A DNA stretch of 64,000 nt from the IMG/VR virus record IMGVR_UViG_3300026097_001055, positions 32,001-96,000 of that record; one strand, given 5' to 3'. A program made the translations under genes and the position numbers. The notes under the pieces were generated by a model, which saw only the letters and a list, made by a program, of their open reading frames with translations, searched no databases and was not told where the DNA came from. Shown here in pieces: positions 7,331 through 56,774 of the stretch (position 1 is the stretch's first letter; each line of letters opens with the position of its first letter). The stretch comes from a virus.

Positions 7331-7342
7331 ATTTTTTATTTT

Positions 7343-7882: not shown

Positions 7883-7903
7883 AATCTAATAAAAACCAAA
7901 ATT

Positions 7904-8026: not shown

Positions 8027-8028
8027 TC

Positions 8029-9294: not shown

Positions 9295-9362
9295 TAAATA
9301 ATTTATATGTATATATTAATACATATATAAGGTAATGTAATTTTAATTTAGTATATTATAAT

Positions 9363-9998: not shown

Positions 9999-10000
9999 TT

Positions 10001-10759: not shown

Positions 10760-10768
10760 TATAAAGAA

Positions 10769-22294: not shown

Positions 22295-22336
22295 ACTTTT
22301 AAAGTTTAATTGTTATAAATAAATTTAGTATATTTA
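22292..22336 (+). promoter_or_regulatory. Promoter with 17-bp palindromic operator (copy 1)
   Basis: TAAACT-TTTAA-AGTTTA, 20-nt spacer, TATATTTA. Confidence 0.6.
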
Positions 22337-22352
22337 ATTAAAGACTATAAGC

Positions 22353-28500: not shown

Positions 28501-28861
28501 TAACGTACTCAATGCTAGTGATCAAGATAAAGCTTATAGAGCAGCTTTAATGTATAATAATCCTCAACAAGCTATAACTCCAGATGGTTTATTGTATTAT
28601 CATAACCCAAAAGCTATTACACCAGATGCTACTCCAGGAAGTGATATAGCAAGTAGTTATAAAAAATACTTTAATCTTACAGGTAAAGAAGATTTAGCTG
28701 TAAAATTAGCAGAACTTGAAAGAGGTAAAGGACACTTTGATAAAAACCGTGCTCAAGATCCAGATGATGCAGATTATATGGAATATTTGGCAAGTAAACA
28801 ATCTAAAAAAGGAGGAGAACATGGAGTACATGCTTCAGACTTATTTCCTTTCTGGTATTAA
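25565..28861 (+). CDS. Virion cargo protein (crAss cargo C1-like)
   Basis: 1098 aa; NLEAEGGETV...GPRHAQGG...FIFSD motif; M/Q/P-rich repeats. Confidence 0.65.
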   Translation: MAKRKVQIVDLPKAQTGQQVGYGLYNRLATMGGLSNQRRGTTTSVNKSMGRVAEGEEPNLEAEGGETVMVPGLYGGVPTHFNITGPRHAQGGVAMNLPEDSFIFSDFVQMRLKDPDVLNYFGKTAKKRGKGKGYTPADIAKQYDINKYIEILNDPNSDDIDKKTAEIMIKNYNLKLGALGLVQESQKGFEDGIPEVSMPYMDHMRITEKDLGVQSKESKELTVIIEQMLQEGLPIEEIIAKLITEEIPPEVIIDALVGTEMSEEEAIQLVEGIISELMNETSMNQEQMPQQQMQQEMPQQMMDPNMMSQEPMSPEMMLHGGRVQPKLRKLKRAQQGGMSPEMMQQQGPPQGQAQGQDPMAEVITMIEQMLQQGVELPAVIFELINMQVPEQIVAEVLMQLGVPEQEIQQAFEIAMSHPEMQQSQEPVMDPAMMQGQGVSPDMMPAMDPSMMQMGGMQQEPTLEEMIAEALQQGAEPQKIIEALVKQGLDPQRAQQSVQQVAQMMMGQQPQAVMQKGGSLKKYKKAGQVPKKYRTDKRYNITDPDFTYAGLKKGDYINLGDGKFQKINVDISDDFTYDKTLEGGVRDDIESALFQLAYFKELSKNPELKRAFHKAYIDIIKDKELFTSKKGTTSKFFGDKELEKVTPDELIDIYTKHIETNANLYLTGLDATDFTQNGKLAANVPKEKKELYKKMAGDKDNPTLQDIYEAKGLSPKGIDIAKSQAGQWAYQKIAAEPEKYIEDPELVEIAKATIKPDPSMGAEDETGTKYEHKSISPIDGYLGNTTIGHLGTTTLLGDAFIDEELEEEIEEVEEIEEDDDYIPYQAPRPWVDLGMSSAHKRQYADALSRRNLPPLVLGQPDVNMRAPDYVLKDWRGMQFDAASDYKQGFESMAANTANPAVARANMVAGMGKLADTAGKFRSDTLDYNVAVQNQFSPMIEDVYNKMNIQRGTLWDKNLGDMNQRRQEQWLAKQKSQTDAINVLNASDQDKAYRAALMYNNPQQAITPDGLLYYHNPKAITPDATPGSDIASSYKKYFNLTGKEDLAVKLAELERGKGHFDKNRAQDPDDADYMEYLASKQSKKGGEHGVHASDLFPFWY

Positions 28862-28906
28862 TAAACTTTAATAGTTTAGTAAACTTAAAATATTTGCATA
28901 CATTTA
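28862..28906 (+). promoter_or_regulatory. Promoter with 17-bp palindromic operator (copy 2)
   Basis: TAAACT-TTAAT-AGTTTA, 20-nt spacer, TACATTTA; extra TAAACTT half-site in the spacer. Confidence 0.6.
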
Positions 28907-28928
28907 CAGTATAAAATAAAAAATAAAC

Positions 28929-32937: not shown

Positions 32938-35900
32938 ATGGAAGAAAATCAAAATATTAATCCAGAACAGATAACTAATCCTGAACTCATTAATGATGAA
33001 TTAACAGCTGATGAATTAACAGTTGACGAATTAACAACTGATCAATCAACAACTGATGAATCAACAATAAGTTCAGAACCCGTAATATCTCCGAAATACA
33101 CTCAGCAAGAAGCTTTTTTAAGAGCTGCAGCAAATCGTGAAAGTATTGAAATTGATAAAAATATATTATCTAATGTAGCTAATGAAGCAAATAAAAACGT
33201 TAATCAGTATGCAGCAATGGCTAAGCATGGTGTTAACTATGGAAGTGCTAACAGAGGAGGTTTAAATTTACAAAGATATTATAACAGAGATGAGTTTCAA
33301 AAATTAGGATTTAACCCATTTATAGATAATGAATCTTATTATCAAGCTAATACTACAGCATGGGATGATTTTAGAGCAGCTTATCAACAAAGTTGGAACT
33401 TAGCTAAGCAAGGATTTTTTAGTTATTATAGTGGGCAAACTGAATATGAGAAAGCAGATGCTTATGAAAAATATGCAAACATAGGAACCTCCCAAAGAGA
33501 AGGTGCTAGTAGGATATTCAATAATGTAGTATTAAATGCGGGATACACAGTAGGGTTGTTATCAAGTATTATAGTTGAAGAAGTAGCTATAGGTCTTTTA
33601 ACAGGTGGTATAGGTAATATAGGTAAACTAGGTGTAACTGCAGCTAAAGTAGGAACAGGTGTTAAAAAAGCAAATGCTTTAAAAAGAACTGTAAATGCTG
33701 TAAAAGAATTAAAAAATTTATCTAATGTAGATAAAGCAAGAAGTTTATGGCAGGGTACTAAAAACTTAGGAACAGCCACAGTAAAAGCTTCTACTAACTT
33801 TATTCCAGGTGCAAAAACAGCTGAGTTAATTTATAATTGGAAACATTTAGGAAAACTAGGTAAAAGTGCAGGTCAAGCATCTTTTGCTTCTTTTGGTGCA
33901 AAAGCTGCTCATACATTTGGTACCTTTTACAGAGAAGGAAGAGAAGTTTTGTTAGCATATGATGAGGCACAATTAGAATCAGGAATGATTTATAATTCAA
34001 TTATGGATGAGCTAACTATGCAATATAAACAAGACAATAATGGTAATTTACCTTCTAAAGAAGATTTAAATGCTTTTCATGATATTGCATATGATAGATC
34101 TATGAAAGGATTTACTAAAAATATGGCTATCATATATGGAACTAACAAGATTTCATTTGGAAATATGTTTAATAAGTTAGCACCTTCTTTAGCAAGAAAA
34201 ACTGCTAAAGGTTTTCAAAATTCTGGTGGTAAGATCGTAAAAGGTTTTGATGGTAGATCTGCTAGAGCTGTATATAATAAAGGTATTTTAAACATTAAAG
34301 GTTCTGCGGCTGAAGCGTGGAAAGGGGTTAAGAATTATAAATCTACATTAAAAGCCATTCCTGGTTTTATTGGTAAGAATGCATGGACTTACACAAGAGC
34401 AAATGTAGGAGAGGGTATTCAAGAATATTTTCAAGAGGTAATACAACATGCTGAGCAAACATCAGCTAAAGATCTTTATGCTAAATATAAAAGCGGAGTA
34501 AGAGGTGTTGCTTTAAATCAAGCTATGGAAGACATGTCTTTTGCTGAAAATTATGGAAAAGCTGCATCACATTTTTGGAGTGGTGAAGGGTTAGAAATAT
34601 TTGGAACAGGTGCTATGATGGGGTTCATAGCAGGTCCTTATTCTAAATTTGTTGGTAAAGTAGGTCAAGCTAGATCAGAACTTTGGCAATACAGAAATAA
34701 AAAAACAAGAGATGCCCGCAAAGCTCATATGCAAAAAGAATATGATATCTTAGATAAAAAAGTTGAAAATTTTAATAAATTATCACTAGATGAAAAAAAG
34801 AACTTATATAAGTATGTTGAGTTAATGGGTAATCAAGCTCAGTATGATGAAGAAATGAAGGATGCTGTTGACCAAAATGATGATAAGAAATTTTATGATG
34901 TTCAAGATGAAGCTTTAAGTGAATACCTTTTAAGTGCTTTACAATTAGGAATGCTTGATAATTTTGAATCAGGTTTAAAAGACATGCTTAATTTGTCAGA
35001 ACAAGAATTTACAGAAGCTTTTGCTGATCAACTAGGATTAGATCCAGAACAAAGCTTGAACCTTAAAAAAAGAGCAACTGATATTTTAGGTTCAGTAACA
35101 AATATAAAAGAAGGATACGAAACACTTAATAACATTTTTCCTGAAATATATGATTTTACAAATGAAAATCCTGAACTTTTTGATGGGGTAAGTATAGATA
35201 CTCTTAATGATATGCGTAATAAATACATATCAACACTTATACTTAATCAAAGACAACTTAATAGAAATTTAGATAGATATCAAAAATTACAACAATCATT
35301 AATAGGTGTTGATAATCCTTTTAGGGATGTAGGTGCTGTATCTTTAAGTTCTTTAAGTAATCTTGTATCTAATACTACTTTAGCTAAAGAATTAAAACTA
35401 CTTGAAACAGAAATAAACACTATTAAACAAGGTAGGGAGTCTGCTCAACAAATGGTTGGTACTCAGAAACAAGTAAATGAAGCTACTAAAGAATTAAAGA
35501 AAAAAGAAAGACTTTATAAGAAATTGAGTGAGATTTATGAAGTAATGCAAAAATTTGAAACTCAATCAAAAAAGTATTCACAAATTACAGGAGTACAGAA
35601 TATAGAACAATCAGGAAGAGTTAATTTACTTAAAGGCACATACCTTAATTATTTAGTTAATAAGTCTAAATCAGTTTCTGCAAAAGTTACCGGTGTAAAA
35701 AAAGTAGAAGGTAAGCCAGCTTTACTAACTATAGAATACACAGAAGGAGAAGGTAAAGATAAAACTAAAGTAACTAAAGAAATAGAATTTGTAAAAGACA
35801 ATATTTTAGAATTACAGATTGATGCTGGTACAGAAAGTATGACTATTTCTAAATCAGCACAAGCTAAAATAAAATCTTATCTTAAAGAAATAGCTAAAGA

Positions 35901-37875
35901 AGCTAACACAACTGTAGATGAGTCTAAATTTGAATCATTCATTAGAAAGTTTTTAGATGCTAGACTTTTAAAAATTGAAGAGATTGATATAGCTAATGTA
36001 ATTGAACAATTACTTTTACCAGAGGTATACAGTGAATATATAGCTAAACAGTTAGCTAGAGCTAAAGATCTGAATAAATACTTTGATGCTATATTAAAAT
36101 ATGATTTAGAAACATTTACTGAAGCTGCTATTACTAATCAATTTTTAGCTCAATTGGTTAATGACCATAATATATTCCTTACAGCTGATGATGTTGTAGA
36201 ATTACTTACAGGACAGATTCCAGCAGATTTAAGATTGTTTGATATTAAGACATTAGAACAAGTAAACCCTGGAACAGAAAGATATATAAAAGCATTAGCT
36301 GATATTAAAGAACATGTAGAGTCAACTGATGAATTTAAAAAAGAAAGAAAAGCTAAAGAAGAAGCTGAGAAGGCCGCTAAAGCTAAAACAGAAGAAGAAG
36401 TAGTAGCAGAAGAAGAAGAGGAAGCACCAGCATCTACTGAAGAGATTACTGTAAAAATGATTACAGATGATGTACCTAATAACTTAAATAATATACCAAA
36501 AGAATTAAAAGATCTTATTCTTAAAAGAATTACAGAGTTTAATGAAGAACTTACAAAAAGTATTGATCAAATTACAGAACCTGAACTGAAAAAACTTTTA
36601 GCAGCTCAAAAACTTACAATAGATACATTGTCTAAAGATAATGAACAAATGTTAAGAGATGCAATAGATGAATACAACAATAAAGCATCAGAAAAAACAG
36701 CTCAATCCACAGAAGAGAAAAAAGAAGAGTCTGCTGCAAAACCAAAAGCTTCTGAATCAACAGCTACTAAACCATCTCAAGTAAGCATTGCTGATTTTAC
36801 TGGAGAAGGTTATGAACAGGCTCATGAGTATTTAAAAAGATTACTTGACGGAGGTTATGCATTGTTTAAAATTAAATCTACAAATGATTTAATGAAAATT
36901 ATTGGTAATCAATTATTTCATTTAGCTACAGTGCAAGTAGATGGATCTTCAGCAAGTAGAACAAAAATTTTACTTACACAGGAACAACTTGCTAAGTTTA
37001 TACCTAATATATTAAAAGCAGAAAGTCAGAATACTTCTTTTGCTATTACATTTGATAATGTTAATACTATTTTAGATTCTACAATTACTACAACAACTCA
37101 GGGAAGTGTAATAGATGACTTTAAGTTTTATATGTACCCTACTGAAAAGTCAGGTATTTATCAATATCCTATAATAGTAGATGATAAAACTTATTATGTA
37201 GAATCAGAAGAGATTGCTGATTTCTGGTCAAAAGATAGTAAAACAGCTCTTTATTCATTAGATGTTACTAACTTAACTGAGTTTAATAAAACAGAAGCTA
37301 CTGATACTAAAGCTTTAGATGAATTAGAAAACGAATTAATTACTTTACTAAATAATCTTACTATAGATAATTATTATGATACTGTAAAGGCAACTCAAAA
37401 ACTTATAATTGATTATAACTTGAACTCAAAAAATAAAGAAAAAGTTAAAGAAACAGATGCTTTAGAAGCGTTAGATCTAAAGTTAGAACAATTAAAGAAA
37501 ACAATAACTATAGATAACTTTAAAGTCTCTAAAGATAAAGTTTATCAAAAAACTGGTATTTCTAAAACTTATACCGTAAAATCTATTAATAAAAAAGATA
37601 AAAAAGTTACCTTTGAATCTATAGGAGATGGTAAATTTATGACTTTAGCCGAAGAAAATTTATATCAAATGAGAGAAGTTAAAATTGATGAAGAGGGTAC
37701 AACAGCTGATGATGTTGTAGAAACACCTATGTCAGAAGAAGCAAATGAAAAATTTGAAGGTACTAAGAATACAACAGATACTTTAACAGCTGACCAAATA
37801 AAGGAGGCGGTTGATTCAGTAACTGGAGAAGAAAACCTTGAAGATTTAATGGATGGTCTAGAAGAAATATGTTAA
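32938..37875 (+). CDS. Large cargo/ejection protein with putative membrane-inserting segments
   Basis: 1645 aa; Gly/Ala hydrophobic stretches (AGYTVGLLSSIIVEEVAIGLLTGGIG; GLEIFGTGAMMGFIAG); EGIQEYFQ motif; only Cys is the last residue. Confidence 0.7.
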   Translation: MEENQNINPEQITNPELINDELTADELTVDELTTDQSTTDESTISSEPVISPKYTQQEAFLRAAANRESIEIDKNILSNVANEANKNVNQYAAMAKHGVNYGSANRGGLNLQRYYNRDEFQKLGFNPFIDNESYYQANTTAWDDFRAAYQQSWNLAKQGFFSYYSGQTEYEKADAYEKYANIGTSQREGASRIFNNVVLNAGYTVGLLSSIIVEEVAIGLLTGGIGNIGKLGVTAAKVGTGVKKANALKRTVNAVKELKNLSNVDKARSLWQGTKNLGTATVKASTNFIPGAKTAELIYNWKHLGKLGKSAGQASFASFGAKAAHTFGTFYREGREVLLAYDEAQLESGMIYNSIMDELTMQYKQDNNGNLPSKEDLNAFHDIAYDRSMKGFTKNMAIIYGTNKISFGNMFNKLAPSLARKTAKGFQNSGGKIVKGFDGRSARAVYNKGILNIKGSAAEAWKGVKNYKSTLKAIPGFIGKNAWTYTRANVGEGIQEYFQEVIQHAEQTSAKDLYAKYKSGVRGVALNQAMEDMSFAENYGKAASHFWSGEGLEIFGTGAMMGFIAGPYSKFVGKVGQARSELWQYRNKKTRDARKAHMQKEYDILDKKVENFNKLSLDEKKNLYKYVELMGNQAQYDEEMKDAVDQNDDKKFYDVQDEALSEYLLSALQLGMLDNFESGLKDMLNLSEQEFTEAFADQLGLDPEQSLNLKKRATDILGSVTNIKEGYETLNNIFPEIYDFTNENPELFDGVSIDTLNDMRNKYISTLILNQRQLNRNLDRYQKLQQSLIGVDNPFRDVGAVSLSSLSNLVSNTTLAKELKLLETEINTIKQGRESAQQMVGTQKQVNEATKELKKKERLYKKLSEIYEVMQKFETQSKKYSQITGVQNIEQSGRVNLLKGTYLNYLVNKSKSVSAKVTGVKKVEGKPALLTIEYTEGEGKDKTKVTKEIEFVKDNILELQIDAGTESMTISKSAQAKIKSYLKEIAKEANTTVDESKFESFIRKFLDARLLKIEEIDIANVIEQLLLPEVYSEYIAKQLARAKDLNKYFDAILKYDLETFTEAAITNQFLAQLVNDHNIFLTADDVVELLTGQIPADLRLFDIKTLEQVNPGTERYIKALADIKEHVESTDEFKKERKAKEEAEKAAKAKTEEEVVAEEEEEAPASTEEITVKMITDDVPNNLNNIPKELKDLILKRITEFNEELTKSIDQITEPELKKLLAAQKLTIDTLSKDNEQMLRDAIDEYNNKASEKTAQSTEEKKEESAAKPKASESTATKPSQVSIADFTGEGYEQAHEYLKRLLDGGYALFKIKSTNDLMKIIGNQLFHLATVQVDGSSASRTKILLTQEQLAKFIPNILKAESQNTSFAITFDNVNTILDSTITTTTQGSVIDDFKFYMYPTEKSGIYQYPIIVDDKTYYVESEEIADFWSKDSKTALYSLDVTNLTEFNKTEATDTKALDELENELITLLNNLTIDNYYDTVKATQKLIIDYNLNSKNKEKVKETDALEALDLKLEQLKKTITIDNFKVSKDKVYQKTGISKTYTVKSINKKDKKVTFESIGDGKFMTLAEENLYQMREVKIDEEGTTADDVVETPMSEEANEKFEGTKNTTDTLTADQIKEAVDSVTGEENLEDLMDGLEEIC
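32995..33069 (+). repeat. Imperfect 15-bp tandem repeat x5 (DELTx/DxSTx)
   Basis: GATGAATTAACAGCT and variants. Confidence 0.85.
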
Positions 37876-37878
37876 GAT

Positions 37879-40800
37879 ATGAAATGTAGTTTAAATGTAG
37901 AAGCACAGTTAGGATTTACTAAGATTTTTTCTAGTGGTTTATTAAATATAGCAAAAGATCCTGCTAAATTAGAAGACTTTAGTTTAGAAACTTATGTTAA
38001 TTATTTAGTCAATGCCTTAGAATCTAAAGGCAAAGATCGTGAAGTAATACTTAATTATGTAAGCATTATACCATCTATAGTTGGTCAGCTTATTCCATTG
38101 ACACAATTTAAACCTTTAAGACCAGGTTTAAGAGCTACAGAGTCCGCAGAATTATTAGATCTTATTTCAGATGCTCAAGGTATAGAAGAGTTAAATGAAA
38201 TTTTTTTTGAGAAGCCTTCTAAAGACCAACTTAAAAAAGATTTAAAAACTAACAGAGATAACAAAAGAGTAGATCAAGCTAATGCTGATGAGGAAGTTAA
38301 CGAAAATCCTCCATCAGATCCTGAGTCAGAAAAAGAAATGGCTGCAGAAATAACTCTTAATGCTGTACCTGATTCTGTTTTAGCATCTACTCAACAAGTA
38401 ATTGATGAAGATGGAAACATAAAACCTGAATATGTTTTTTATAATACTTTTCTAGCTGATTTATCTGATATGCTTGCCGGTGATACTAGTGCAGAAACAT
38501 TGGCTAAAATGAGTTTTACTGATACTGAAGGTAAAACAGTTAAAGGTATTACTGTTAGAATGGCTTTCTTATCACAAGTAGTTACTAACATTAATAAAAG
38601 AAAACAAAACGGGATTGATACAAATCCTGAAACAAGTAGGGTAATGCCTGTGGTTATATTCACAAACAAAAAAGGTGAACCTATTTATTTTAAGAAAGAA
38701 GACAACGGTATGTATACAGTTTATACTGAAGAGGAAGCTCGTGAAGAAAATGATGCATTACCTGTATATTTTGCTGTTAGAGCTATAGAAAAGAAAAAGG
38801 GTAGATGGGTTTCTAAAACTAAAATACAAACACCTTTAGATATATTACAAACAAGTAAAGGTGGTAAAAGAGCTTTAGAAAAATATAAAGAGGAAGACCC
38901 TGATGGTTACAATGCAGATCTAGAAAGAATAGATATGCAACAACAACAGGAATTTCTTATGTTACATTTAGCAAAAGAAAAACTAAAATCTACAAAACTC
39001 AGTAAAGTTAGAAACTTATTAAATAACCATTTTAAAGGAGGTACATACTTTTTACAAGGTACTCTTACTAAAAGAGGTACAGGTAAATCTAGAAATTTTA
39101 ATGTTACTGATGCTAAAGCTGCACCGGAATTAAAAGCAGATGACGTTAAAAACATGAAAGTTTTCATAAATGATAATTTACAAGAAATCATAGATGAACA
39201 GAAGCTAGCAGGATTTAAAGTAATGGAACGTAAAGGTGTTTACATTACTCAGATGAAAAAAAAACCTAAACTCAAAACTAAAGATGGTTCTGAGTTTAAT
39301 GATGTTTATGAAATACAATTAAAGTTTAAAAAAACAGTTAATGGTAAAATAAAGTATACTACAAAAACAATAGGTGTTTTACAAGCTACAGAATTTAATA
39401 CAGCTAATACTTCTTCTATAGAATTTGCTGGAATAAGTAAAGGTTACATAGCTGTAGAAAGAACAGCAGAAACTAGAACTTCATCAATTAAATGGGAGTC
39501 ATCAGATGTTCCATTTAATCCAGCATTAGGAGGAGCAAAGGTTAGATCTACAGGTATTAATCCTGGTGAAATATATATCCCAGCCGGAAATACAAATATT
39601 CCATTACAAATGGATTCTATATCTAATGAAGATATAAATACTATTAACTCTTTACTTTTTGATAAGGATTTAAAAACACAAGCTAGTGTTAAGAGTAGAG
39701 TTAAAGAACTAAGTAATGAAGATAGATTTAAAGCTTTAGCTACAATTTTAACATTAGGTGATAGAAATGAAGAAGGTGCACAAAGTCATATTTCCGGAAT
39801 ACAATATTATCCAAAAACAGGAAAGGTTATTGTAGATGGAGTTACTATAAAACTTGATGATCCTGCATCTGTAAAAAGAGGTAAAGAATTAGTAAAAAGT
39901 TTACTTACTGAAACAGTAACTACTAAAGCAGGTAAAGACTCAGGATACACTAGAATTAAATATAAAATATCAAATACAGTTTTAAAAACGGGTGGTAATA
40001 TAGAAACCTATAGTATTGAAAACGGGATTCTTAAAAGAGTTAATGTTAATGTTTTAGATTTCATAAAAGACAATTCTATAATCAGAGTAGTGCCTTTAAA
40101 TAATGAAATTAAATATGTTAATGGTTATGTTAGATTTAGTCTTAGTGAAACAGCAGTTGCTGAGAAAGAAGGTATGCCTACTGAGGCTGAAGAAGAAGTA
40201 ATAGAAAAAGTTACTCCTAAAAAACCTGTAGCTAGAAGAAAAACTACACCTGTTAAGAAAGATATTAAAGTAACACCTCCTAAGTTTTCAGAAACTAAGC
40301 CTGTTGATTTAACTGATAGAGGAAATGTAGGTGAACAAAGAACATTAGATGATGATTTACCAACCATAGATGACCTGTTAAATAAAGCTAAGAATAGCCC
40401 AGAGTTATTAGATTCAGATCCTGTGTCTGATGCACAAGCTAAGGCATGGTTAGAAGGCCCTGGAAAAGCTTTATTCAATAATACTGGAATATCTTTTAAC
40501 AGAGCTTTTGATGTGGTTAATTCAAACGCTTTTGGTACATTCAGAGATGGTGTAATTTCATTATGGAAAGGTTCTGATTATACAGTAGCTTATCACGAAG
40601 CATGGCATGCTTTTTCACAACACTTTGTAACAGTTGGTGATAAAATAAAACTATATAATTATGTAGCTAAAACAGATTCAGGTAAAAAAGCATTAGCTGA
40701 ATATGCTAAAGAAAAACAAATTGATGTAGACTCTTTAACTGATATTCAAAAATACTTTGCTGTAGAAGAACTTATTGCTGAAGACTTCAGAATTTATATG

Positions 40801-43800
40801 ATGTCTGGAGGTAGTAAAATAATCAAAGGTGCTCCTGAAAGAAATACAATATTTAGAAGAATCTTAAATTTCCTAAAGAATTTATTTGTAGGTAAAGATG
40901 GAAATCAGATGCTTACTGAGATGTATAATAACTTAAGAAAAGGAGAGCTTAATACTTATTTACCAAGTCAGTCTAATAGAATATTCGGAAAGACATTAAA
41001 TAAGTTTAAGCCTGTTCCTGGTAATACTCATGAATTTACACCACAAGATTTAATACATGCTAATGAGACAATTGGTGGATATCTTTCAGAAGTTATTTCA
41101 GACAAAACTATAGAAAAGGGAGCTTCTATATTTAGCTTATTGGTTCTTGACCCTAGTACAAACTTACCTAAAATTTATAAAAATGTACAACAAAAATTAG
41201 AAGCTAAACTTTTAGAATTACAAGCAGAAGAAGAACTTACTTCCAATGAAGAAAATGCTATAAAGCTTATTTCAGCTATACTTGATAACTGGGGTAATTC
41301 TAAAATAGGTATGGTAGCTAATCATTTAGAATCTATCAAATATTTAGATATTACTAAAGTTGATTTTGATGAAGATGCTTTTAGAATTACTGAAGAAGAT
41401 CAAGAAACTATGCGCTTTGATGCTGCAGGTAATGACTTATCTTCTGTAGATGTAGCATCTAAAGGAGTCAAGTTAATGTTGTCTTTAATCCCTAACAGAG
41501 ATAATGAAGGAGATGTATTTAGAAATGAGTTAGGAGCTGTTGAATTAGTTCCTTTTGCTAGAGTCTGGTCTGTTGTTAAAGACAAAGTTATTGGTAAAAA
41601 CTCTCCTGAAGAAATGATAGATGCTTTAAAAGAATTAAGATTTAGTTTTCCTTGGGTTATAGATATTATAAACACATTACAACCGGTTGAAAATATTAAT
41701 AATTCTTCTAACTTACAGCAATTACTTTACTTAAGAAATAGTTTTTTCCATAGCTTTAATTTAGCTGAAAGAGACCTACACCAGGTAAACATAAATGAAG
41801 AAAAGACTATAGTAATTGATGAAGAAGGTGGTAAAACTGTAAATAAAAGTCACACAATAAGAACTGGTGTAGTAAGTGGTGTAAGTAAATATGCTATTAC
41901 TGAATTTAGAAGTATGTTTGCTTCAGCAGGACCTAGTGAATTTATATTATCTACAACAGAAGGTAACGCTTTAAATGTAACAGCAGTATTAGATAGATGG
42001 ACTAAAGCTCCTAACACACCTGAAGAAAAGTTAGCCTTTTTAAGACATTTAGGTTTAGTAATGGTTGATGTACCTGCGGTCAGAGAAGCTATTAAGAATA
42101 TTGAAGTAGGCTTTTTATGGAGTAGTTTAGATGAGTATAATAAAAATTATGTAATAGGTGGAGAAGCTAATGCTAATTTTATTATGGATCCTCTTACCTT
42201 ATTAACTTTAGGTAAAAAAGAAATATATAAGATACAAGGTTCTACTAAAACAATGCCTAAAGTTACCGTAACTAGTCAAAGTAGTACCATCAATGCTTTA
42301 GCTGAAATGCATGTAAAGTATTCAGGTAATTATGCTAACGTTGCTCTTACAACAGCTGATGGAAAGCAAAAGTATAACACAACACTTATGTCTTCATTAG
42401 ATGTAATGGTTAAGGAATTAAATAATGTTGAGTCATATGCTGAGTTAGTTAACCTTCCTCATATGAGCCATTTAAAAATGGACAAGTTCTTTATGGCAAG
42501 TGCTAATCCTATTCTAAAATCTTTATTTGAATATGATGAGATTGCTGGTACTTTTGGTAAAAGAAGAAAAGGAATAGTATTTACAGTTGATGACCTTACA
42601 GGAGTACAAACAGTAGTAAATGAATTATATGCAGACTTTTCTAGAAGTGTGGTAACTGCTAAAATGGATAGATTTACTAGAATACAATCTGACATATATA
42701 GTGGGTTAATGCAAGGTAAGTTTAGTACTACTACTCACTCCGATAAGAGTACAGCCTTAACCTATTATCTAAATAGCATAGAAGGTTCTTCACCTAAAGC
42801 TAAACACTTGTATGTTAATCCAACAGGATTTAGAATAAATGATAATACAGCAGGTATTGAAGAAGCTTTTGCTTTGTTAGAACCTTATATTAATGGAGAG
42901 CTTGAAAGAATAAATAAAGTAAAAGCTTTCACTAATGGTGAAATAGAATTAGATAGAATTCCTGGAGTTACTATTCCTAATAGTAAAGGTAAAATGACTG
43001 GAGATAAGTTTAAATTTATCTCTGGTATATTTACTAATTCTACACTAGAAGATCTTTCTCAATACAATGATATGAGTGAGGTACCTGATGAATTAGCTCA
43101 GACAATGATAGAAGAATATTCTATGTATGTAGACACTAAAGTTGATGAAATAAAGGATATGTTAGATGGAACTTTATTTGTTGATGCTAATATGATAGAT
43201 CTTCTTAATTCTATGGGTGAAGGTCTTGAAGGAGTTAACCCTAAACAAAAAAGAGAAGCTGCAGAACATGCTGTGTTATACGGATATGTTACAAATTATT
43301 TCTTTCATCAAGCTGCTACAGTATCCTTACTTTATGGTGATCTTACTGAATACAATATGGCTAAACATGATTTTAATAAACGTAATGCAGCAGTAGCAGC
43401 TACTGGAATACGTATGTTTAGAACAGACAGTGAAGCACTTACTTGGGTAAATGCTGAATACAAATCAACCTCTGATAAATTATCATACGCTCAAAAACAA
43501 GGAGTAGCTGATTATAGAATAGGGGAAGTGTTAAGAACAGCTGTTATTAAAGATCTTTTAAAAGATTCTGTTTCTATGGGTAGTCCTGAAATGAAAAAAC
43601 AGTTAATAGCTAAATATAAAGAAAGAGGCCTTAACCAAACGCAAGCTATAGAAGCAGCAGATAAGCTTATAAACTATTATAAAGGTATGGAGGTTGCTGA
43701 TGCTCAAGGTTATATAAGCTTTGATCATTATAGAAAATTAAGAATGCTTAGTGATAGATGGTCTCCTTCATTAGATGCTATCTATTATAAAACAATAAAT

Positions 43801-48516: not shown

Positions 48517-48518
48517 TT

Positions 48519-51500
48519 ATGAGTGAACGTTGTATTTTAAAAAGTAATCCTCAGTACCAAAATATAGTAAAGATTTTTGGTGATAATGTAGCTTCAACTT
48601 TAGTAATTGAGTTTAATAAAAATATTGCAAGTACAGAAATGTTTTATCCAAAAGTAAAAACATTAACTAATTGGATATCAAAAAACAAAACTGAACAAAT
48701 AGCTAGAGTTAAAGATTTGCTTATAGCTGAACCAGGCATGACTGAAAAGGCTATATTTAATTTACTTTCAGGAGTTATAACTAAATTTGAAAATAGTTAT
48801 ATGGTTACTAGAGGTAACCTTTTTGGAGGAGGTCTTGTCAACAAAGCTTATAATGAAAAATATACTTATGGTGCTAACATAAGATTAATGAGAAAACTTG
48901 CTGAAGAATTCCCTCAGCATTTTGAAATTATAGATGGTGCTAAAAATAGCTTTACACATATTGTAAAGATTAATCCTATAAAACCAGATGTAAGTGGTGT
49001 CTCACAGCAATCAATTGGACCAGATGGGCAAACTAAATTGTTTGATTATAACGTAGATCCTACAACAAAAGGAGCTCAAACAAAAACTAGTCAAAGACTA
49101 CAAAATTTATTTGAAAACAAACCAAAAGTTGCCGCAGTTGATATTGTAGACAAAATAAAAAAAAATAATCCAGAACTAAGACATCTTATAAATAAACTAG
49201 AAGGTTTAATTCCTGCTGGAACAGAAATAATACTAGAGGATTCAACAGGTTACACTACTCCTTTTGGTACAGCTAATGCTAAATATAATAAAGTAACTCA
49301 AGAGATATCTATTGCTAAAAATGCTTTGTTTGCTCAAAGCCCTGAAGCTGTAATACTTCATGAACTTATTCATAGAATAACTTCTGAGCAATTAATATTG
49401 GATACTAAAGCAACTCTAAAGTTTGATGAGCTATTAACTCAAGTAAGAGAAAAGATAGGAACAAATAGATTTGATTATGCTCTACAGAACAAAGATGAGT
49501 TTCTAGTAGCCGTATTAATGGATAAAGAATTTGGTGCAGCATTGTCTAAGTTAGAAGGTGTAGATAAAAAAATAAGCTTATTTGAAGAAATTATAAACTT
49601 TATACTCAGGGTCATAAACATTGAAAAAACAGATAATGCTTATGACCAAGCTGTAAGTTTAGTAAATAGTATCCTAGAAACCATTAATCCTGTTGTGTCT
49701 AATCAACCTGTAAGTGGTATAAAACAAGGAGTGTCAGAACTATTTGAATCTAATCCTGAATTAGCTAATGAAGTATATTCAGCTTTAGGGTTTGATAGTG
49801 TTACTATTCCAAAATATAATATTAATAAAAAATTAAGCAATAAAGATGGAACTAAAAGACTAGCGCAAACTAACGGACTAAACATTACACTTAATCCTGT
49901 TACATCTATACAAGAATTTTTTGATTATTTTACAGGAAAAGAAGGTGGAATATCTTCTCAACAAAAAAATAAAGTATTAGATGTTTTAAAAACAAAAGGA
50001 TATTCTTTAGATAAAATAAAAAAGATACTTGACACAAAACTAAAAATAAATACTTTTTTAGTTTTGCACGAACAAGACCACATTGTTAATAATGATAAAG
50101 ATGTATATTGGAAATCAGGTAAAGATTTATTAACTTCTGATAAAATTAATATAGAAGCTAGAGCTACAATAAATGCTTTAAAGCAACTAGAAACTCAAAT
50201 AACCCCACAACAAAAACAAAAAGCTCAACAACTATACTCTCAATATCTTGATACTATATTTCCTGATAGTAAAGTAAAGGATATTGTTTATCATGGTACA
50301 GGTTCTTCAGAAACTATTGAAAACTTTAACAGAAGAACTTATTTTAGTATTTTAGAAACAGCTTCGGAATATGCTTCTTGGGATGCTAAAAATAGATTAG
50401 AGTATGCTGCTTCTCAAGATCCTAGTTTAACAAAAGATTGGAAATTTAAAGCTAACGTTATCCCAGCTATAATCAATCTTAAGGATCCTAAAATGTTAAA
50501 CAAGAGACCTTATAAAGAAACAGAAAAAAATTATCCTGGACATGATGGAATATACTCAGAAAATACTGTAAATCCTTTACAGGGTTCAGAATTACAAATA
50601 GTTGTTTTTGACCCTAAGAATACTTATATTTTAGGTTCTAAACAAGATATACAAGGATTTAAAGAGTTTGTTGGTACTGAAACTACACCGTCTTTAACAG
50701 AAGAAATAATAGATAATCCTGAAACTATATTTGTAGTAGAAGCTGATCAAGCAGGTAATGTATATACTGAAGAAACAGGGGTTACTAAACTAGAAGCTTA
50801 TCCTAATGTGGTAACTATTATAACAGCTAAGAATTTTAATAGTACAGAAAGTTTAACGGCTGCAGAACAAGACAGTTTAAAAGAAGATTTAGAAAACTCC
50901 TTAGACCTTTTAGAGCAAATAGTTACTGATGATACTGATGTAAAATTTGTAAGCAAGAATATGGGCCAAGGATTAGATGCTATAAACAGCAACTTCAAAG
51001 ATTACCTTAAAGCCCGTCTAGAAAATGAACATGGTGTTAAGTCTAAAGAATCTTCTGTAGATCAAGTTAATCAAATAGAAGAAGAAGATACTATAATTGC
51101 AGATCCTAAAGAAACCGAAAATAAACAAGAGACATTAGAAGAAAAACTTAATCCTAAAAAACAAGAAACTAGAAGATCTACAGCTTTTCTAATGGATGCT
51201 GTAAAAATGTTAATGGATAACTTAGGAATGCCTGAAAGCAGCGTACAGTTCATATCAGCAAATGAGGCAATGTCTATTACCAGAAATGCTAAAAACTCTT
51301 ATAATGGACAACCTGCGTTCTTCTACAATGGTGTTGTATACTTTGTAGATGGTCAGATTGATTTTAAAACAGCATTGCACGAGGTTTCTCACCCTTTTGT
51401 AAAAAGTATACGTTATCAAAATGAAACATTGTTTAACGAGCTTTATGACACTGTAGCAACATCTGAGTTAGGTAAACAAGTTATTGCTCAAGCTTTAGCT

Positions 51501-54500
51501 GACTATAATGCAAACTTAAATACAGCAGCTGATAGAAAAGAAGAAATTAATGATGATGTTAGAGAAGAAGTTATAGTAAGATTCTTAACAGAAGCTCTGG
51601 AACAAATTGTTTCAGAAGAAGGTTTGCAAACAACAGGTTCAGTAAAAGAACAAACACTTATTCAAAAGATCATTCAGAAAATAATGTTTGCTCTTAAAAA
51701 AATGTTTAGACAGGTGTTTGGTAGAACTTTAAAAATAGAAAAGCTTAAACCTACAACCAGTATAGAAGAACTTGCTAATTTATTAGTGTCTGAAAAGTTT
51801 CAAGTAAACATGGATATAGTTTCACAAACAGATGTAGTAGATTATATAAACAATGTAAATAAGATTAATGAGCAATTAAGAGATACAATAATCAACACTA
51901 AAGATAAAGGTAAGATTGCATTACTTACAGCTATAGGAGATACTGCTCAAATGTATAAAAGTTTATTAAATACTCTAAAAGAAAATGATGATATTGAAGG
52001 GTTAAAAATGGTATTAGAGGAAAATTATGATGGACAAACACGTATCACAGATTTACAAAAAGCAGCTAGAGAAATTAATGTAGATAAATTAACTGTATTA
52101 ACTAAACTAGCTGAGGAAGAAAATGCAATAACTGAAGTTACAAGAGTTGGTCAAAATATAGTAACTATACTAGCCGGTCAAGAAATTGCTTTAGATAACA
52201 TCAAAGTAAGATTAAATTATCTAAAAAATCAAAAAATAACTGATGATAAAAAATTAATCACGGAACTTAATACTTATAGAAATCATGTAAAACATGTACA
52301 AGAATTTGTAGATAATTTTGTTAAAATTGCTGATGAAATAGGCATAGAAGAAAATGATGAGATCCGAATAGAAATGGGTACTCTTTTCCTAAAAACTAAA
52401 AATAGATTAAAGGATATTAATAACATACATGAAGACATTGTACTTCCTGTTTTAAAAGATACTTGGGATATGTTTATGGGAGGTACCATAGCTGAACTTA
52501 AAGAGCAAAAGAAAAAGCTTGAAAAACTTCTTAAAACAGATGGTGCTTATAAAGCAGGAGTAGAAAGAAGCTTAAAAAATGTTAATGCTAGATTGGAAAA
52601 AACTGATATTGGTTTAGATGCTTTTAAAGAATATGCTTATGGTAAACGAGGTGATATAAATCCTATTTCATCATGGATGGAAAGTTATATAGCTCAACAA
52701 GATCCTACAATATCTAGTTTTGCTGCATATGTAAAAATGGAATTGTCAGAAGCTCAAAATGCTGAGTATGCTAGATTTAATACCTTACGTAACAAACTAG
52801 ATAAATTAGAAAAACAATTAGGTTTAAATCCATCTGATATAAATGCATATGCTAATGAATTTTTAACTGAAGATACTGTTAAAGTAAAAAATGATCAAGA
52901 TGAACTTGTAGACTTTGAAGTATATGCTATTCTTAATCCTTTTAAGAATACGGAAAATACTATGAGAGCAATGTATTCACGTATTCAAGACATAAGAGAT
53001 GCTGCTGAAAACCAAACACCCGGTGCTTTAAAAGAATTAGAAGAGCTAGAAGCTAAACTAAAATTACATAAAGCTCTTTTCTGGAATAATGAAATGGTAG
53101 ATGAGTATTATTTTACAGACATGCTTTTGTTAAATGCAGAAGGTGTGAATGGAGCTGCCTTATTAGAGCTTATATCAGAAAAACAAAAAGAAATTAGACA
53201 TTTACATTCTCAAAGAAATTTTGCAGAAGATGAACTTGAGGTTAAAAAACTTTATGATGAAATCAAGCAGAAAAGATATGAAATTAGAGAATTCTATTCT
53301 GATTACAATAATGGTGTAAAAAAAGATGAGCAAGGTTTAAAAGATGCTAAAGCTTTAAGAGAATGGAGAGAATCTAAAAATAAATACTATGAGCTCAAAC
53401 TTAAAAAAAATGATTTTGAAAAAGCCTTATTTGGATTTGAGCAAATTACTATAGCTAAGCTACAAGCTGAAGGTTATACTCAAGATGAAATTACTGACGA
53501 GCTTGCTGATGCTAGAGAACAATGGATAAAAGAAAACACCAGAGTAGTAATTAATCAAGATTTTTATGATACTAAATCAAATATCCTTACTGAGCTTAAT
53601 GCAGTTAATGAAGAAATAGAAGAGTTCTTACAGAAAGATAAAACCTTATCAGATGTAGCATCATCTACAGTATTATATAATGGTAAGCTATATCAAGTTA
53701 CTTATTCAGAAGGTGTGTACACACTATCTAAAGAAAATGAACAAGATATAGAAATAGAAGCAGAAGCTGATACATTATTATCAGTACTAAACATGAAGAT
53801 ACCTACAAAAAAAGCTTTTGATACTCAACGTGAATATATATTCCAATCTTTAATGGGTAAAAAAGATGAAAATGGAGAGTACAGAGTCACTGAATTATCT
53901 GAAGAGCACATAGCTCTTATTAAAAAGATGCAAGAAGAGATTGAAGCAAATAAAAATCTTTTAGTTAATAACTCAGGTCTTAGCCAGAGTGAATCAAGAG
54001 AGCTACAAGATTTTTTTGAAAAAAGAAAATTAGCTCAAAAACTTACTACAAAAGAAAATAATAGATTCAAAAGTCTCTTAGCTAAAAAGAATGACTTTAA
54101 AATACCAACAACTCTAAAAAATAAGCTTAGCATTTACACTAAAATGTTAGCTGAATTGCAGTCTAAAGAAGCTACTAGTTATTATTTAGATACTGTAAAT
54201 GACACATTTTATGACTTGCTTAACTTACATGATTTGTTAGATGGTCAAGACTTTGACTTAACTGTAGCTGAAACAATACTTTCTATACCTGTTGCTGAAG
54301 CTCTTATGGAATCAGATCCTAAGTTTAAAGAATGGTTTGAAAAAAATCATTTTATAGCAGAAGTATACATAGATGAAGAAACCGGTTATGAACAAAGATA
54401 TCAACGTATAGAACCTTGGAATAAGATTGTTCCTAATGATCCGTCATACTATGAAAGTTTTGAACTAACTAATCCAGATGGTAGTACACAAACTATACAA

Positions 54501-56774
54501 GGATTACCTTCTATAGATTTCTATAATAGAGAGTTAAAAAATGAGTATAAATTAGGTTATGATCCAAAAACTGGAAAAGTTGATAATTCAGAATTTAAAG
54601 ACCAAAGTGGTAATTATAAACCTAAAGATAAAACTCAGATGGAAAAAATGCGCTCTAAATATGGAGAGTATTTTCAACAATCTGAACAAGCTTGGGATCA
54701 TTATCTTAATCTAGATTACTATAAAGTAATGGAAGAAGCAGGTCCTAAAGCTGAAATTCTTAAAACTCTTATAGAATATCATGAAGGTTCTCAAGAAGGT
54801 TTAGATCCTAATCAAATGATAGGAATGTATTTACCTAGATTTAGAGCAGATTTGTACCAAAACTTAACAGCAGATGATAAAGCAAACTTTACTGATAGAA
54901 TGGCTCAGATCTGGGAAAATACTCGTTCTCAGTTTAGACCACGTGTAGAAGACTACGAAGAGGGTTTTAACTTTGTAGAGTCTGTATATGCAGCTGATAA
55001 AATTGTGTATAGAACAGATAGTGAAAAAATACCTATTCAAGGTAAATATCTTTTAGATAAAGGACAAGTAAGTAGAGACATATTTGCATCTTTAGGAGCT
55101 TATGCATTATCTGCCGCTGAAAATAAAAAACTAAAAAAATCTAATCACATGGGTAGATTTTTACAAGATATTGCAAAAGCTAATACTCCAGCTACTATAA
55201 CTAAAACTTTAAAAAAATCATCAATAACTGGTCAACTAGCACAAAATGCAGCTAATAAACTGAAAAGTAGTAAAGTTATTTTATCAGGTTCTGAAAACTT
55301 TAGAAGTGATACTATTGATGCAATGATAGAAACTAACTTTGAGGGTAGACAAATGAATACTGATTCTCCAATATGGCAACAAATAGTTAAGTTTACAAAA
55401 CCTTTAACATCTATAGGTTCTTTTAGTTTCTTTGCTTTTGACTTACAATCAGCTGCTAAAAACTACTTAGGAGCACATGCTATGGTAGGATTAGAATCCA
55501 TTAATTCTAGATACTTTAGTTATAGATCTCACGTTCAAGCATTACCTTGGGCTCATTCAGCTATGGCCAATTTAGGAATGGAAATTTATGAAACAGAAGC
55601 TAACAGTTTAAAAGTACAAATGCTAATGGCATTTGATGCTTTTCAAGGGAGGTTTGAACAAAAGTTTGCTACTAACCCTGGTAGAAAGCTGACTAGAGAT
55701 TTAGTAAACATGAATTGGACTAGTAACACTAGACAATACTTAGAGATAACCACAAATGTTGAAACTCTTGCTTCTATGTTACATCATGTAAAAGTGGAGC
55801 AGACTTTAGATAATGGAGAAGTAAAAACTATTAAATACGTAAATGCATTTGAACTAGATGAAACAACTAAAACATTAAAATTAAAAAAAGGTATAGATCC
55901 TAAATATGATGTTAATGGTGAAGAGTTTAATAAAGTAAAACTTGCAGCACAAGAACATAACAATTTTGCTCAAGGGGTTTATGCTAAGTTTGATAAAACC
56001 AGGTTAGAGAGAACCGTAATGGGTGCAATGAGTGTTAGAATGAAAAAGTTCTTTGTAAAAATGGCTATTAATAGATTTGCCTTAGAAGAAAGAACCAACC
56101 TTGCTACAGGAAGAGTAGAATCAGGATTTTATATAAAAACTGCTAAAACAATTAAACGTTTAGCGCAATCAGGATTAAGAGATTTAGCTTATTTAGAAGC
56201 TGATGAAAAAAAAGCTTTAATACAAACTCTTGTAGACTTATTTAAAGGGTATGTTCTTTATGAGTTAATATTGTTAGGTTTATTTTTAGGATTTGATTTT
56301 GATGATAAAGATAAATATAACAAAATGAAAGAACGTTCAGGGGCTTTACCTACACCCTTTACATCAGAAGAAGATTCTGAAGAATTCAAAGCAGGAGGTT
56401 GGATTTTAAACAATTTAACTTTACTTTTATTAAATACACATGAAGAGATAACTTTTTTCAATCCTATGGATTCTCCAATGTATGCTACACTATCTAATTG
56501 GGGACCTGTAACAGAAAGTTCTGCAGTAGTAAATGGACTTAGTATTATTAAAGATATAAAAGATTTAGCTACTTTTCAAGGACTGGACGTTTACCAAAAA
56601 GATGTAGGTGCATTAAATGTACAGAAAAAAAATGAATACAAAATTTGGATGAAATTGTATAAACTAATAGGTCTTAAAGGTAAAATGATTGATCCTGTAA
56701 CTTCTGCTAGAAATAAAATGAGCATGAGAAGACTCAGTAGAAGTGGTAAAAAAGAAGAAGAAGAAGAATTATAA
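48519..56774 (+). CDS. Giant polyvalent cargo protein (three HExxH zincin-like motifs, ART-like domain)
   Basis: ATG 48519 (MSERC) preferred; HELIH 49359, HEQDH 50067, HEVSH 51378; YHGT 50289; long helical C-terminus with a hydrophobic segment. Confidence 0.75.
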   Translation: MSERCILKSNPQYQNIVKIFGDNVASTLVIEFNKNIASTEMFYPKVKTLTNWISKNKTEQIARVKDLLIAEPGMTEKAIFNLLSGVITKFENSYMVTRGNLFGGGLVNKAYNEKYTYGANIRLMRKLAEEFPQHFEIIDGAKNSFTHIVKINPIKPDVSGVSQQSIGPDGQTKLFDYNVDPTTKGAQTKTSQRLQNLFENKPKVAAVDIVDKIKKNNPELRHLINKLEGLIPAGTEIILEDSTGYTTPFGTANAKYNKVTQEISIAKNALFAQSPEAVILHELIHRITSEQLILDTKATLKFDELLTQVREKIGTNRFDYALQNKDEFLVAVLMDKEFGAALSKLEGVDKKISLFEEIINFILRVINIEKTDNAYDQAVSLVNSILETINPVVSNQPVSGIKQGVSELFESNPELANEVYSALGFDSVTIPKYNINKKLSNKDGTKRLAQTNGLNITLNPVTSIQEFFDYFTGKEGGISSQQKNKVLDVLKTKGYSLDKIKKILDTKLKINTFLVLHEQDHIVNNDKDVYWKSGKDLLTSDKINIEARATINALKQLETQITPQQKQKAQQLYSQYLDTIFPDSKVKDIVYHGTGSSETIENFNRRTYFSILETASEYASWDAKNRLEYAASQDPSLTKDWKFKANVIPAIINLKDPKMLNKRPYKETEKNYPGHDGIYSENTVNPLQGSELQIVVFDPKNTYILGSKQDIQGFKEFVGTETTPSLTEEIIDNPETIFVVEADQAGNVYTEETGVTKLEAYPNVVTIITAKNFNSTESLTAAEQDSLKEDLENSLDLLEQIVTDDTDVKFVSKNMGQGLDAINSNFKDYLKARLENEHGVKSKESSVDQVNQIEEEDTIIADPKETENKQETLEEKLNPKKQETRRSTAFLMDAVKMLMDNLGMPESSVQFISANEAMSITRNAKNSYNGQPAFFYNGVVYFVDGQIDFKTALHEVSHPFVKSIRYQNETLFNELYDTVATSELGKQVIAQALADYNANLNTAADRKEEINDDVREEVIVRFLTEALEQIVSEEGLQTTGSVKEQTLIQKIIQKIMFALKKMFRQVFGRTLKIEKLKPTTSIEELANLLVSEKFQVNMDIVSQTDVVDYINNVNKINEQLRDTIINTKDKGKIALLTAIGDTAQMYKSLLNTLKENDDIEGLKMVLEENYDGQTRITDLQKAAREINVDKLTVLTKLAEEENAITEVTRVGQNIVTILAGQEIALDNIKVRLNYLKNQKITDDKKLITELNTYRNHVKHVQEFVDNFVKIADEIGIEENDEIRIEMGTLFLKTKNRLKDINNIHEDIVLPVLKDTWDMFMGGTIAELKEQKKKLEKLLKTDGAYKAGVERSLKNVNARLEKTDIGLDAFKEYAYGKRGDINPISSWMESYIAQQDPTISSFAAYVKMELSEAQNAEYARFNTLRNKLDKLEKQLGLNPSDINAYANEFLTEDTVKVKNDQDELVDFEVYAILNPFKNTENTMRAMYSRIQDIRDAAENQTPGALKELEELEAKLKLHKALFWNNEMVDEYYFTDMLLLNAEGVNGAALLELISEKQKEIRHLHSQRNFAEDELEVKKLYDEIKQKRYEIREFYSDYNNGVKKDEQGLKDAKALREWRESKNKYYELKLKKNDFEKALFGFEQITIAKLQAEGYTQDEITDELADAREQWIKENTRVVINQDFYDTKSNILTELNAVNEEIEEFLQKDKTLSDVASSTVLYNGKLYQVTYSEGVYTLSKENEQDIEIEAEADTLLSVLNMKIPTKKAFDTQREYIFQSLMGKKDENGEYRVTELSEEHIALIKKMQEEIEANKNLLVNNSGLSQSESRELQDFFEKRKLAQKLTTKENNRFKSLLAKKNDFKIPTTLKNKLSIYTKMLAELQSKEATSYYLDTVNDTFYDLLNLHDLLDGQDFDLTVAETILSIPVAEALMESDPKFKEWFEKNHFIAEVYIDEETGYEQRYQRIEPWNKIVPNDPSYYESFELTNPDGSTQTIQGLPSIDFYNRELKNEYKLGYDPKTGKVDNSEFKDQSGNYKPKDKTQMEKMRSKYGEYFQQSEQAWDHYLNLDYYKVMEEAGPKAEILKTLIEYHEGSQEGLDPNQMIGMYLPRFRADLYQNLTADDKANFTDRMAQIWENTRSQFRPRVEDYEEGFNFVESVYAADKIVYRTDSEKIPIQGKYLLDKGQVSRDIFASLGAYALSAAENKKLKKSNHMGRFLQDIAKANTPATITKTLKKSSITGQLAQNAANKLKSSKVILSGSENFRSDTIDAMIETNFEGRQMNTDSPIWQQIVKFTKPLTSIGSFSFFAFDLQSAAKNYLGAHAMVGLESINSRYFSYRSHVQALPWAHSAMANLGMEIYETEANSLKVQMLMAFDAFQGRFEQKFATNPGRKLTRDLVNMNWTSNTRQYLEITTNVETLASMLHHVKVEQTLDNGEVKTIKYVNAFELDETTKTLKLKKGIDPKYDVNGEEFNKVKLAAQEHNNFAQGVYAKFDKTRLERTVMGAMSVRMKKFFVKMAINRFALEERTNLATGRVESGFYIKTAKTIKRLAQSGLRDLAYLEADEKKALIQTLVDLFKGYVLYELILLGLFLGFDFDDKDKYNKMKERSGALPTPFTSEEDSEEFKAGGWILNNLTLLLLNTHEEITFFNPMDSPMYATLSNWGPVTESSAVVNGLSIIKDIKDLATFQGLDVYQKDVGALNVQKKNEYKIWMKLYKLIGLKGKMIDPVTSARNKMSMRRLSRSGKKEEEEEL

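Follow-up and report, generated by a model that had tools for sequence, protein, structure and literature searches.

Paired terminal cysteines at the gene junctions of a crAss-like phage RNA-polymerase module, a candidate head-to-tail disulfide chain

Two kinds of cysteine (Cys) usage have been described for the proteins that phages eject into their hosts. In the N4-like Schitoviridae, suppression of Cys in the ejection proteins is published and is total (PMC11445570), which confirms the background stated in a sequence-only reading of the present DNA, and in the pre-ejectosome of cyanopodophage A4 cryo-electron microscopy resolved a single disulfide, joining Cys1715 of gp27 to Cys5 of gp26 (PMC12002296). 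For crassviruses, a virion RNA polymerase (RNAP) and the two giant proteins beside it were detected by mass spectrometry in virions of phi14:2 and crAss001 (PMC10172136; bioRxiv 10.1101/2020.03.07.982082), and disulfides are present in the tail and portal vertex of crAss001 virions (PMC10172136). The crAss001 structural atlas makes no mention of Cys in the cargo proteins and leaves the order of ejection open (PMC10172136), the phi14:2 preprint likewise does not mention Cys (bioRxiv 10.1101/2020.03.07.982082), and a 2026 N4 paper calls the relationships of the three RNAP-associated ejection proteins of crassviruses unresolved. Here, we analyzed the RNAP genes in a stretch of 64,000 nucleotides (the window), bases 32001-96000 of the 114,890-bp virus record IMGVR_UViG_3300026097_001055, a crAss-like phage genome that is 96% complete. 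Our literature search returned no description of a terminal-Cys rule for Crassvirales, nor of terminal cysteines in phage ejection proteins apart from the A4 bond. In the literature that we found, the known kinds closest to such a rule are ejection proteins devoid of Cys and the one disulfide of A4.

Cysteines at the junctions of the three genes

Judged by their sequences, three consecutive genes of the window (GC content ~30%) are the RNA-polymerase module of a crAss-like phage. We refer to their products as P1, RNAP and P3, with lengths in amino acids (aa):

32938..37875, plus strand: P1, 1645 aa, 184.9 kDa, first member of the putative chain; one Cys, the last residue; no N-terminal Cys
37870..37872, plus strand: TGT codon of P1 Cys1645, followed by TAA, the single codon GAT and the RNAP ATG in the same frame
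37879..48516, plus strand: giant virion-type RNAP, 3545 aa, 399.4 kDa, middle member; Cys at residues 3 and 3545 only
37885..37887, plus strand: TGT codon of RNAP Cys3
40591..40608, plus strand: YHEAWH, a zincin-type HExxH motif, RNAP residues 905-910
45061..45075, plus strand: DFDID, the catalytic Asp motif of a two-barrel RNA polymerase, RNAP residues 2395-2399
48511..48513, plus strand: TGT codon of RNAP Cys3545, the last residue, followed by TAA, 2 nucleotides and the P3 ATG in a different frame
48519..56774, plus strand: P3, 2751 aa from its ATG, 314.2 kDa, last member; Cys5 its only Cys; C-terminal tail acidic and without Cys
48531..48533, plus strand: TGT codon of P3 Cys5
51378..51392, plus strand: HEVSH, a second zincin-type HExxH motif, P3 residues 954-958

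The sequence-only reading had placed one Cys at the last residue of the 1645-aa P1, one at residue 3 and one at the last residue of RNAP, and one at residue 5 of P3. Translation counts agree exactly, and a computational check for overlooked internal Cys found none in P1, RNAP or P3. The three proteins hold 4 Cys in 7,941 residues, compared to the ~105 that would be expected from the 1.32% Cys of the open reading frames (ORFs) outside the cargo block in the same genome, and random placement would confine all 4 Cys to the four ends that face a junction with a likelihood of 4e-11 to 4e-10. The accompanying claim that external, tail-side virion proteins are rich in Cys was also borne out, by ORFs in 5587-11644 with 3.0-7.8% Cys. 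We set the start of P3 at the ATG at 48519 and not at the GTG at 48510, because homologues begin at an identical M-S-x-x-C.

By homology, the RNAP protein belongs, though distantly, to the crAss-like group of virion RNA polymerases. In tblastn, it matched phi14:2 gp66 and crAss001-type RNAPs across residues 1800-2800, and a profile built from it and 11 homologues matched PDB 6VR4 (phi14:2 gp66) at E=2e-23. D2395, D2397 and D2399 of the catalytic motif are invariant in alignment A1 (23 homologues), and all five DFDID residues, as well as C3 and C3545, are invariant in alignment A2. P1 takes the position of phi14:2 gp67, a virion protein whose gene adjoins that of the RNAP, and P3 that of phi14:2 gp65. 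Direct BLAST links to Kehishuvirus proteins are weak. The label of channel former that had been given to P1 is unsupported, as the protein has no family match. Searches of Pfam and PHROGs returned no family for P1 or RNAP, and for P3 only a sub-threshold PB1 match, which was not used. From the homology, we infer that P1, RNAP and P3 are virion components that enter the host.

The terminal-Cys pattern is a conserved rule that goes beyond chance. The conservation check proposed along with the sequence-only reading found it kept in RNAP, P1 and P3 homologues, in 79 viral contigs, and in phi14:2, Kehishuvirus, cr1_1 and cr11_1. Nearly all of 110 RNAP homologues (23-95% identity, 2,300-6,000 aa) have 1-3 Cys, at residues 3-6 and/or in the last 0-6 residues, and all 11 P1 homologues have exactly one, in the last 0-2 residues. 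The 19 P3 homologues P0123-P0142, with the exception of P0133 and P0137, have a single Cys, which lies at residues 2-8; these two are without Cys. C5 is the sole invariant column of the P3 alignment (labelled alignment A4). In phi14:2, gp67 has a sole Cys at its very end (Cys1797), the 2180-residue gp66 has Cys3 and Cys2179, and gp65 has Cys3 only. In Kehishuvirus tikkala (crAss001-like), where the first gene of the module lies on the opposite strand and the pattern is kept, a 2310-aa protein has Cys2309 only, the 2412-aa RNAP has Cys5, Cys1334 and Cys2404, and a 1349-aa protein has Cys5 only. Over the viral-contig loci, the N-terminal Cys stands at position 3, 4, 5 or 6 in 53, 42, 23 and 13 cases and never beyond residue 6, and the distance from the C-terminal Cys to the end is 0-9 residues, in most cases 0-4. 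Cys is the sole invariant position at the module termini, each of which has its own flanking motif: C-[AS]-L-[ST]-x-x-Q at the RNAP N-terminus, C-P-[IN] at the P3 N-terminus, and L-G-C-K at the P1 C-terminus.

An artefact or an effect at the level of the DNA (chance, miscalled start codons, or a TGT-TAA-ATG signal for translational coupling) might have been read from the window, where both junctions run TGT TAA, 2-3 nucleotides, ATG. This explanation is refuted and retains next to no probability. The pattern persists in Kehishuvirus and in IAS virus, where one of the genes is inverted, and ten junctions with gaps of 354-1837 nucleotides keep both Cys (L014, L031, L042, L046, L053-L055, L058, L064 and L075). 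Since neither the inversion of a gene nor a gap of as much as 1.8 kb abolishes the pairs, no DNA-level effect accounts for them. TGT and TGC codons are both in use at the junctions, the distance of the Cys from the C-terminal end varies from 0 to 9 residues, and chance is below 1e-9 in the window alone. As a separate observation, the 354-1837-nucleotide gaps leave space for small inserted genes.

The P1 and RNAP genes share a reading frame with TAA and GAT between them, and a read-through product would be a fusion of 5,192 residues; the second junction is out of frame. We rejected read-through of the in-frame TAA as a general mechanism, as the second junction is out of frame and the genes of many relatives overlap or are spaced apart. 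In split inteins, the N-intein (~100 aa) begins with a catalytic Cys and the C-intein (~35 aa) is followed by a +1 Cys. Such inteins were rejected as well, with the Cys lying within 0-9 residues of the end and at residues 3-6, which leaves no space for intein halves. Lipobox or prenylation signals were rejected on the absence of a signal peptide and because prenylation is eukaryotic chemistry.

Co-variation of cysteine pairs with gene fission and fusion

We found the Cys pairs to come and go with the breaks between the genes. An IMG/VR scan yielded 79 loci. After de-duplication, junctions were taken between same-strand ORFs of at least 400 aa and scored for Cys among the final 10 residues of the upstream protein and the initial 8 of the downstream one. 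Both Cys were present at 128 of the 176 junctions and neither at 47, with one discordant case, in which the upstream Cys lies 18 residues from the end (Fisher p=3e-42, uncorrected for phylogeny). Internal Cys in these loci amounts to 0.010% over 547,817 residues of 256 proteins. The rule that emerged is that n separate proteins have n-1 Cys pairs.

Fused forms illustrate this rule. Fusions of RNAP with P3-like sequence have zero Cys (P0093, 5990 aa; P0105, 5545 aa; P0085, 4368 aa); in P0105 we further detected a P1-like segment, P0093 is colinear with the fused P1-RNAP protein of L078, and a viral-contig scan with P0085 as query gave no match. Where P1 is separate and RNAP is fused to P3, as in cr11_1 (Intestiviridae), only the first pair is present, namely the C-terminal Cys of P1 and Cys3 of RNAP. 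Where P1 is fused to RNAP and P3 is separate, as in cr1_1 (Suoliviridae) and in L044, L055, L068, L071, L072 and L078-L080, only the second pair is present, and the upstream neighbours, where they are in the locus, have no terminal Cys. L024, L037 and L046 each include an additional protein (506-655 aa) with Cys at both ends; that of L037 corresponds to the C-terminal part of the RNAP of relatives, including the same terminal motif. At the level of residues, the split junction of L078, with ETPFCNR ending one protein and MATSCNF beginning the other, aligns with a continuous, Cys-free NEFFQTNTSLYNL in the fused P0093. A FastTree tree of the RNAP core gave at least 4 changes between fused and split states and 3 independent origins of the extra member. 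As this tally scored forms as fused by the absence of the N-terminal Cys, BLAST colinearity with separate P1 proteins serves as an independent check, and it confirmed five of the P1-RNAP fusions without reference to Cys. L002 was rejected as a close fused relative: it has only a 106-aa domain at 55% identity in common with the window, which makes a junction alignment meaningless.

The break points themselves have also moved. The zincin block of the window RNAP (residues 884-1022), in which Y905, H906, E907 and H910 are invariant in alignments A1 and A2 and A908 and W909 almost invariant in A2, forms the C-terminal end of the separate, preceding 2310-aa protein in Kehishuvirus. As the block belongs to the preceding protein there and in cr11_1, the gene breaks have shifted along a colinear order of domains. 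The comparison suggests that the module acts as one polyprotein that is cut at different places by lineage.

An irregular case is IAS virus (L087, 9147-18129), where the protein upstream of the annotated 2159-aa RNAP is 837 aa long and has Cys5 as well as a Cys 3 residues short of its C-terminus. The annotated start of this RNAP overlaps the 837-aa gene, and the protein lacks an N-terminal Cys and contains X, so the start may be miscalled or the sequence in error. Proteins of IAS virus contain 7-10 internal Cys.

These data bear on which ends would pair. If Cys3 and Cys3545 closed the RNAP upon itself, with P1 and P3 bonded to each other, the numbers of N- and C-terminal Cys would likewise be equal, and like ends could in principle also form dimers. 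We give such pairings very little credence. The RNAP of cr11_1 has an N-terminal Cys only, and in cr1_1 and nine other loci the reverse holds, such that the facing end of the neighbour is the only available partner. Both two-protein forms keep only the pair at their one junction, so pairing is junction-specific, which excludes self-closure of the RNAP. Fusions moreover remove exactly the two facing Cys, while dimerization of like ends would not need equal numbers of N- and C-terminal Cys. The interpretation given in the sequence-only reading is partly supported: its core idea, a head-to-tail pairing of terminal Cys between consecutive proteins, finds support, because the pairs track gene fission and fusion across Crassvirales, coming and going exactly with them, and the same signature is an observed disulfide in A4. 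Co-variation shows a pairwise relation and not its chemistry.

A putative head-to-tail disulfide chain and its alternatives

The reading that we favor, with somewhat better than even confidence and from sequence comparison, is that disulfides link P1, RNAP and P3 head to tail into a chain, which would amount to a redox-cleavable polyprotein. In its favor, the placement of the Cys suits a linear join, RNAP Cys3 being modelled in a free tail, and disulfides do form elsewhere in crAss001 virions (PMC10172136). With the upstream protein ending in Cys (in the last 0-9 residues) and the downstream one beginning M-x(1-4)-C, each pair could form an inter-protein disulfide in an oxidising environment or in the released particle. 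P1, RNAP and P3 would be joined into one near-linear thread of 7,941 residues and 898.5 kDa. With no other Cys present, this thread would have neither loops nor branches and could pass the tail channel in single file, and the terminal placement would leave stubs of only a few residues. Of the proteins in the scanned loci that have at least 2 internal Cys, about half have them 5-13 residues apart, a spacing at which only tiny loops could form. Such a chain would set a 1:1:1 stoichiometry and the order of entry, and the reducing host cytoplasm would separate the thread into three proteins with no need for a protease. The disulfide chain would be the covalent counterpart of the polyprotein in other lineages. 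For crassviruses, we infer disulfide formation, single-file ejection and reductive release alike. The outer chain ends never carry Cys. The acidic C-terminus of P3 ends in KKEEEEEL (window 56700-56774), and close homologues end in runs of D/E and distant ones in basic residues.

It is unlikely, though the strongest of the competing accounts, that disulfides form but serve assembly, through co-packaging or stability of an internal core, with no single-file train at ejection. The authors of the A4 structure read the gp27-gp26 bond as stabilizing a pentameric pre-ejectosome ring. A stabilizing cross-link could sit anywhere on the surface, however, whereas here it always lies a few residues from the chain ends, and in fused forms a peptide bond stands, residue for residue, where the Cys pair is. 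The poverty of Cys elsewhere in the proteins matches other injected proteins, and the host cytoplasm is reducing during assembly, with no phage oxidase found.

The pairs could also mark a specific end-to-end contact that involves no disulfide, such as a metal ion shared with other ligands or a non-covalent docking motif, an explanation that we consider rather improbable. The conserved flanking motif that each class of terminus has for itself resembles a docking interface, and disulfides are disfavored in anoxic habitats. Against this, two thiols make a poor metal site and no conserved His or Cys partner lies nearby, the identical signature in cyanophage A4 is a disulfide, and a Cys that is the sole invariant terminal position fits covalent chemistry better than packing.

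Several points weigh against the head-to-tail disulfide chain itself. In crassviruses, disulfides between these proteins remain hypothetical. A4 gp26 and gp27 are not linked to the module by sequence or structure comparison: BLASTP of the module proteins against them gave no match at E<=0.01, and Foldseek of the N-terminal models gave no match to A4 gp26. Without similarity in sequence or fold, the precedent is an analogy that shows what the signature can be and not common descent. IAS virus and cr11_1 have 3-10 internal Cys in module proteins, and 24 viral-contig proteins have one unpaired internal Cys; such tolerated internal Cys weaken the argument that any further Cys would prevent threading. 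The gut habitats of crassviruses are anoxic, and the crAss001 disulfides come from purified virions. The phage genome yielded neither an Erv-type sulfhydryl oxidase nor a thioredoxin, a negative that for the oxidase is weak because the model used matched no control genome either; with no phage thiol oxidase or thioredoxin, oxidation would need to be spontaneous. Lastly, the crAss001 study ran reduced and non-reduced virions on sodium dodecyl sulfate polyacrylamide gels for mass spectrometry and reported no giant species, though none was sought (PMC10172136), and the supplement of that paper contains no data on reduced versus non-reduced samples.

Taken more broadly, we give about even odds to the idea that crassviruses build a megadalton redox-cleavable polyprotein that is joined by disulfides, threaded as one linear chain and cut by cytoplasmic reduction, with n-1 pairs as a general design principle. 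The question bears on how crassviruses, the most abundant human-gut phages, move polymerase proteins of ~700-900 kDa out along a narrow tail, and on what determines the order in which these exit. The Cys rule provides a concrete hypothesis for which phi14:2 and crAss001, both in culture, offer an inexpensive test. If true, it would explain why some lineages have one polyprotein and others two to four genes, would let the three crass proteins correspond to the one-chain virion RNA polymerase of N4, and would offer a marker, from sequence only, for co-injected virion proteins and their order in uncultured phages. The rule may then reach other podophages such as A4.

Further domains, neighboring genes and known systems

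The second zincin-type motif, in P3, has H954, E955 and H958 invariant in alignment A3, and phi14:2 gp65 has been described with a zincin-like protease domain (bioRxiv 10.1101/2020.03.07.982082). An AlphaFold2 model of the first 600 aa of RNAP was usable (predicted local distance difference test, pLDDT, 72) and placed Cys3 in a free tail right before a confident all-alpha domain at residues 7-110, while that of the first 600 aa of P3 was poor (pLDDT 56). Foldseek of these N-terminal models of RNAP and P3 against PDB gave no match at E<=0.001, the P3 model being the poor one. Homologues of RNAP and P3 (P0004, P0012, P0013, P0015, P0028, P0046-P0057, P0126 and P0140-P0149) bear varied inserted enzyme domains, comprising AlkB-like PF13532, YbiA-like PF08719 and a RecD/UvrD-type helicase (PF13604 and PF13245), and further kinase PF13671, zeta-toxin-like PF06414, RNase H PF00075, LysM PF01476 and PF18760. 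If the chain model is true, these domains would travel within the same thread.

Two groups of genes in the window lie upstream of the module:

5587..11644, plus strand: block of six consecutive Cys-rich proteins, 3.0-7.8% Cys
19277..32915, plus strand: four large, nearly Cys-free proteins of 1005, 1070, 1098 and 1328 aa (4,501 aa in total), with no terminal Cys

The Cys-rich block, in which the ORF at 8029-9294 has 33 Cys in 421 aa and several proteins have Cys near their ends, probably represents tail proteins held by disulfides, as in the crAss001 tail; 5587-7272 gave weak PHROG baseplate matches. Two of the four large proteins are without Cys, one has C280/C283 and one C128/C133, the close pairs lying in 22353-25565 and 28929-32915. 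Among the loci listed for this observation (L005, L031, L074 and L014), the C128/C133-134 pair recurs in the relatives L005, L031 and L074. Similar close pairs, 5-13 residues apart, are found in P3 homologues of L056, L068 and L072, and at 1036/1039 in A-4L gp28, where only tiny loops or a small metal site would be possible.

Compared to the described systems, the module is closest to gp67-gp66-gp65 of phi14:2 and gp47/gp49/gp50 of crAss001, with which it has in common a two-barrel polymerase with DFDxD, two giant flanking proteins and a HExxH zincin motif, and phi14:2 and Kehishuvirus show the terminal-Cys pattern in identical form. It differs from these cultured relatives in that its RNAP has ~24% identity to theirs over the catalytic core, is 3545 aa long as opposed to 2180 aa in phi14:2, and includes a zincin block that is found in Kehishuvirus at the end of the preceding protein. 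The Schitoviridae ejection operon (N4 gp50 virion RNA polymerase, gp51 and gp52; DEV gp71-73) resembles it in a giant injected virion RNA polymerase and a strong suppression of Cys. The N4-like proteins, however, are Cys-free including their termini, and their polymerase is a single polypeptide of an unrelated, T7-like fold, whereas the module here consists of split genes with a conserved Cys pair at each break. Finally, A4 offers the same signature in two consecutive large proteins, of which the first (A-4L gp27, 1717 aa) has Cys1715 only, 2 residues short of its C-terminus, and the second (gp26, 1114 aa) has Cys5 only. Unlike the crassviruses, A4 is a T7-like phage without a virion RNA polymerase and has one Cys pair only, and its bond was read as a ring stabilizer and not presented as a chain, a general rule or the equivalent of a polyprotein.

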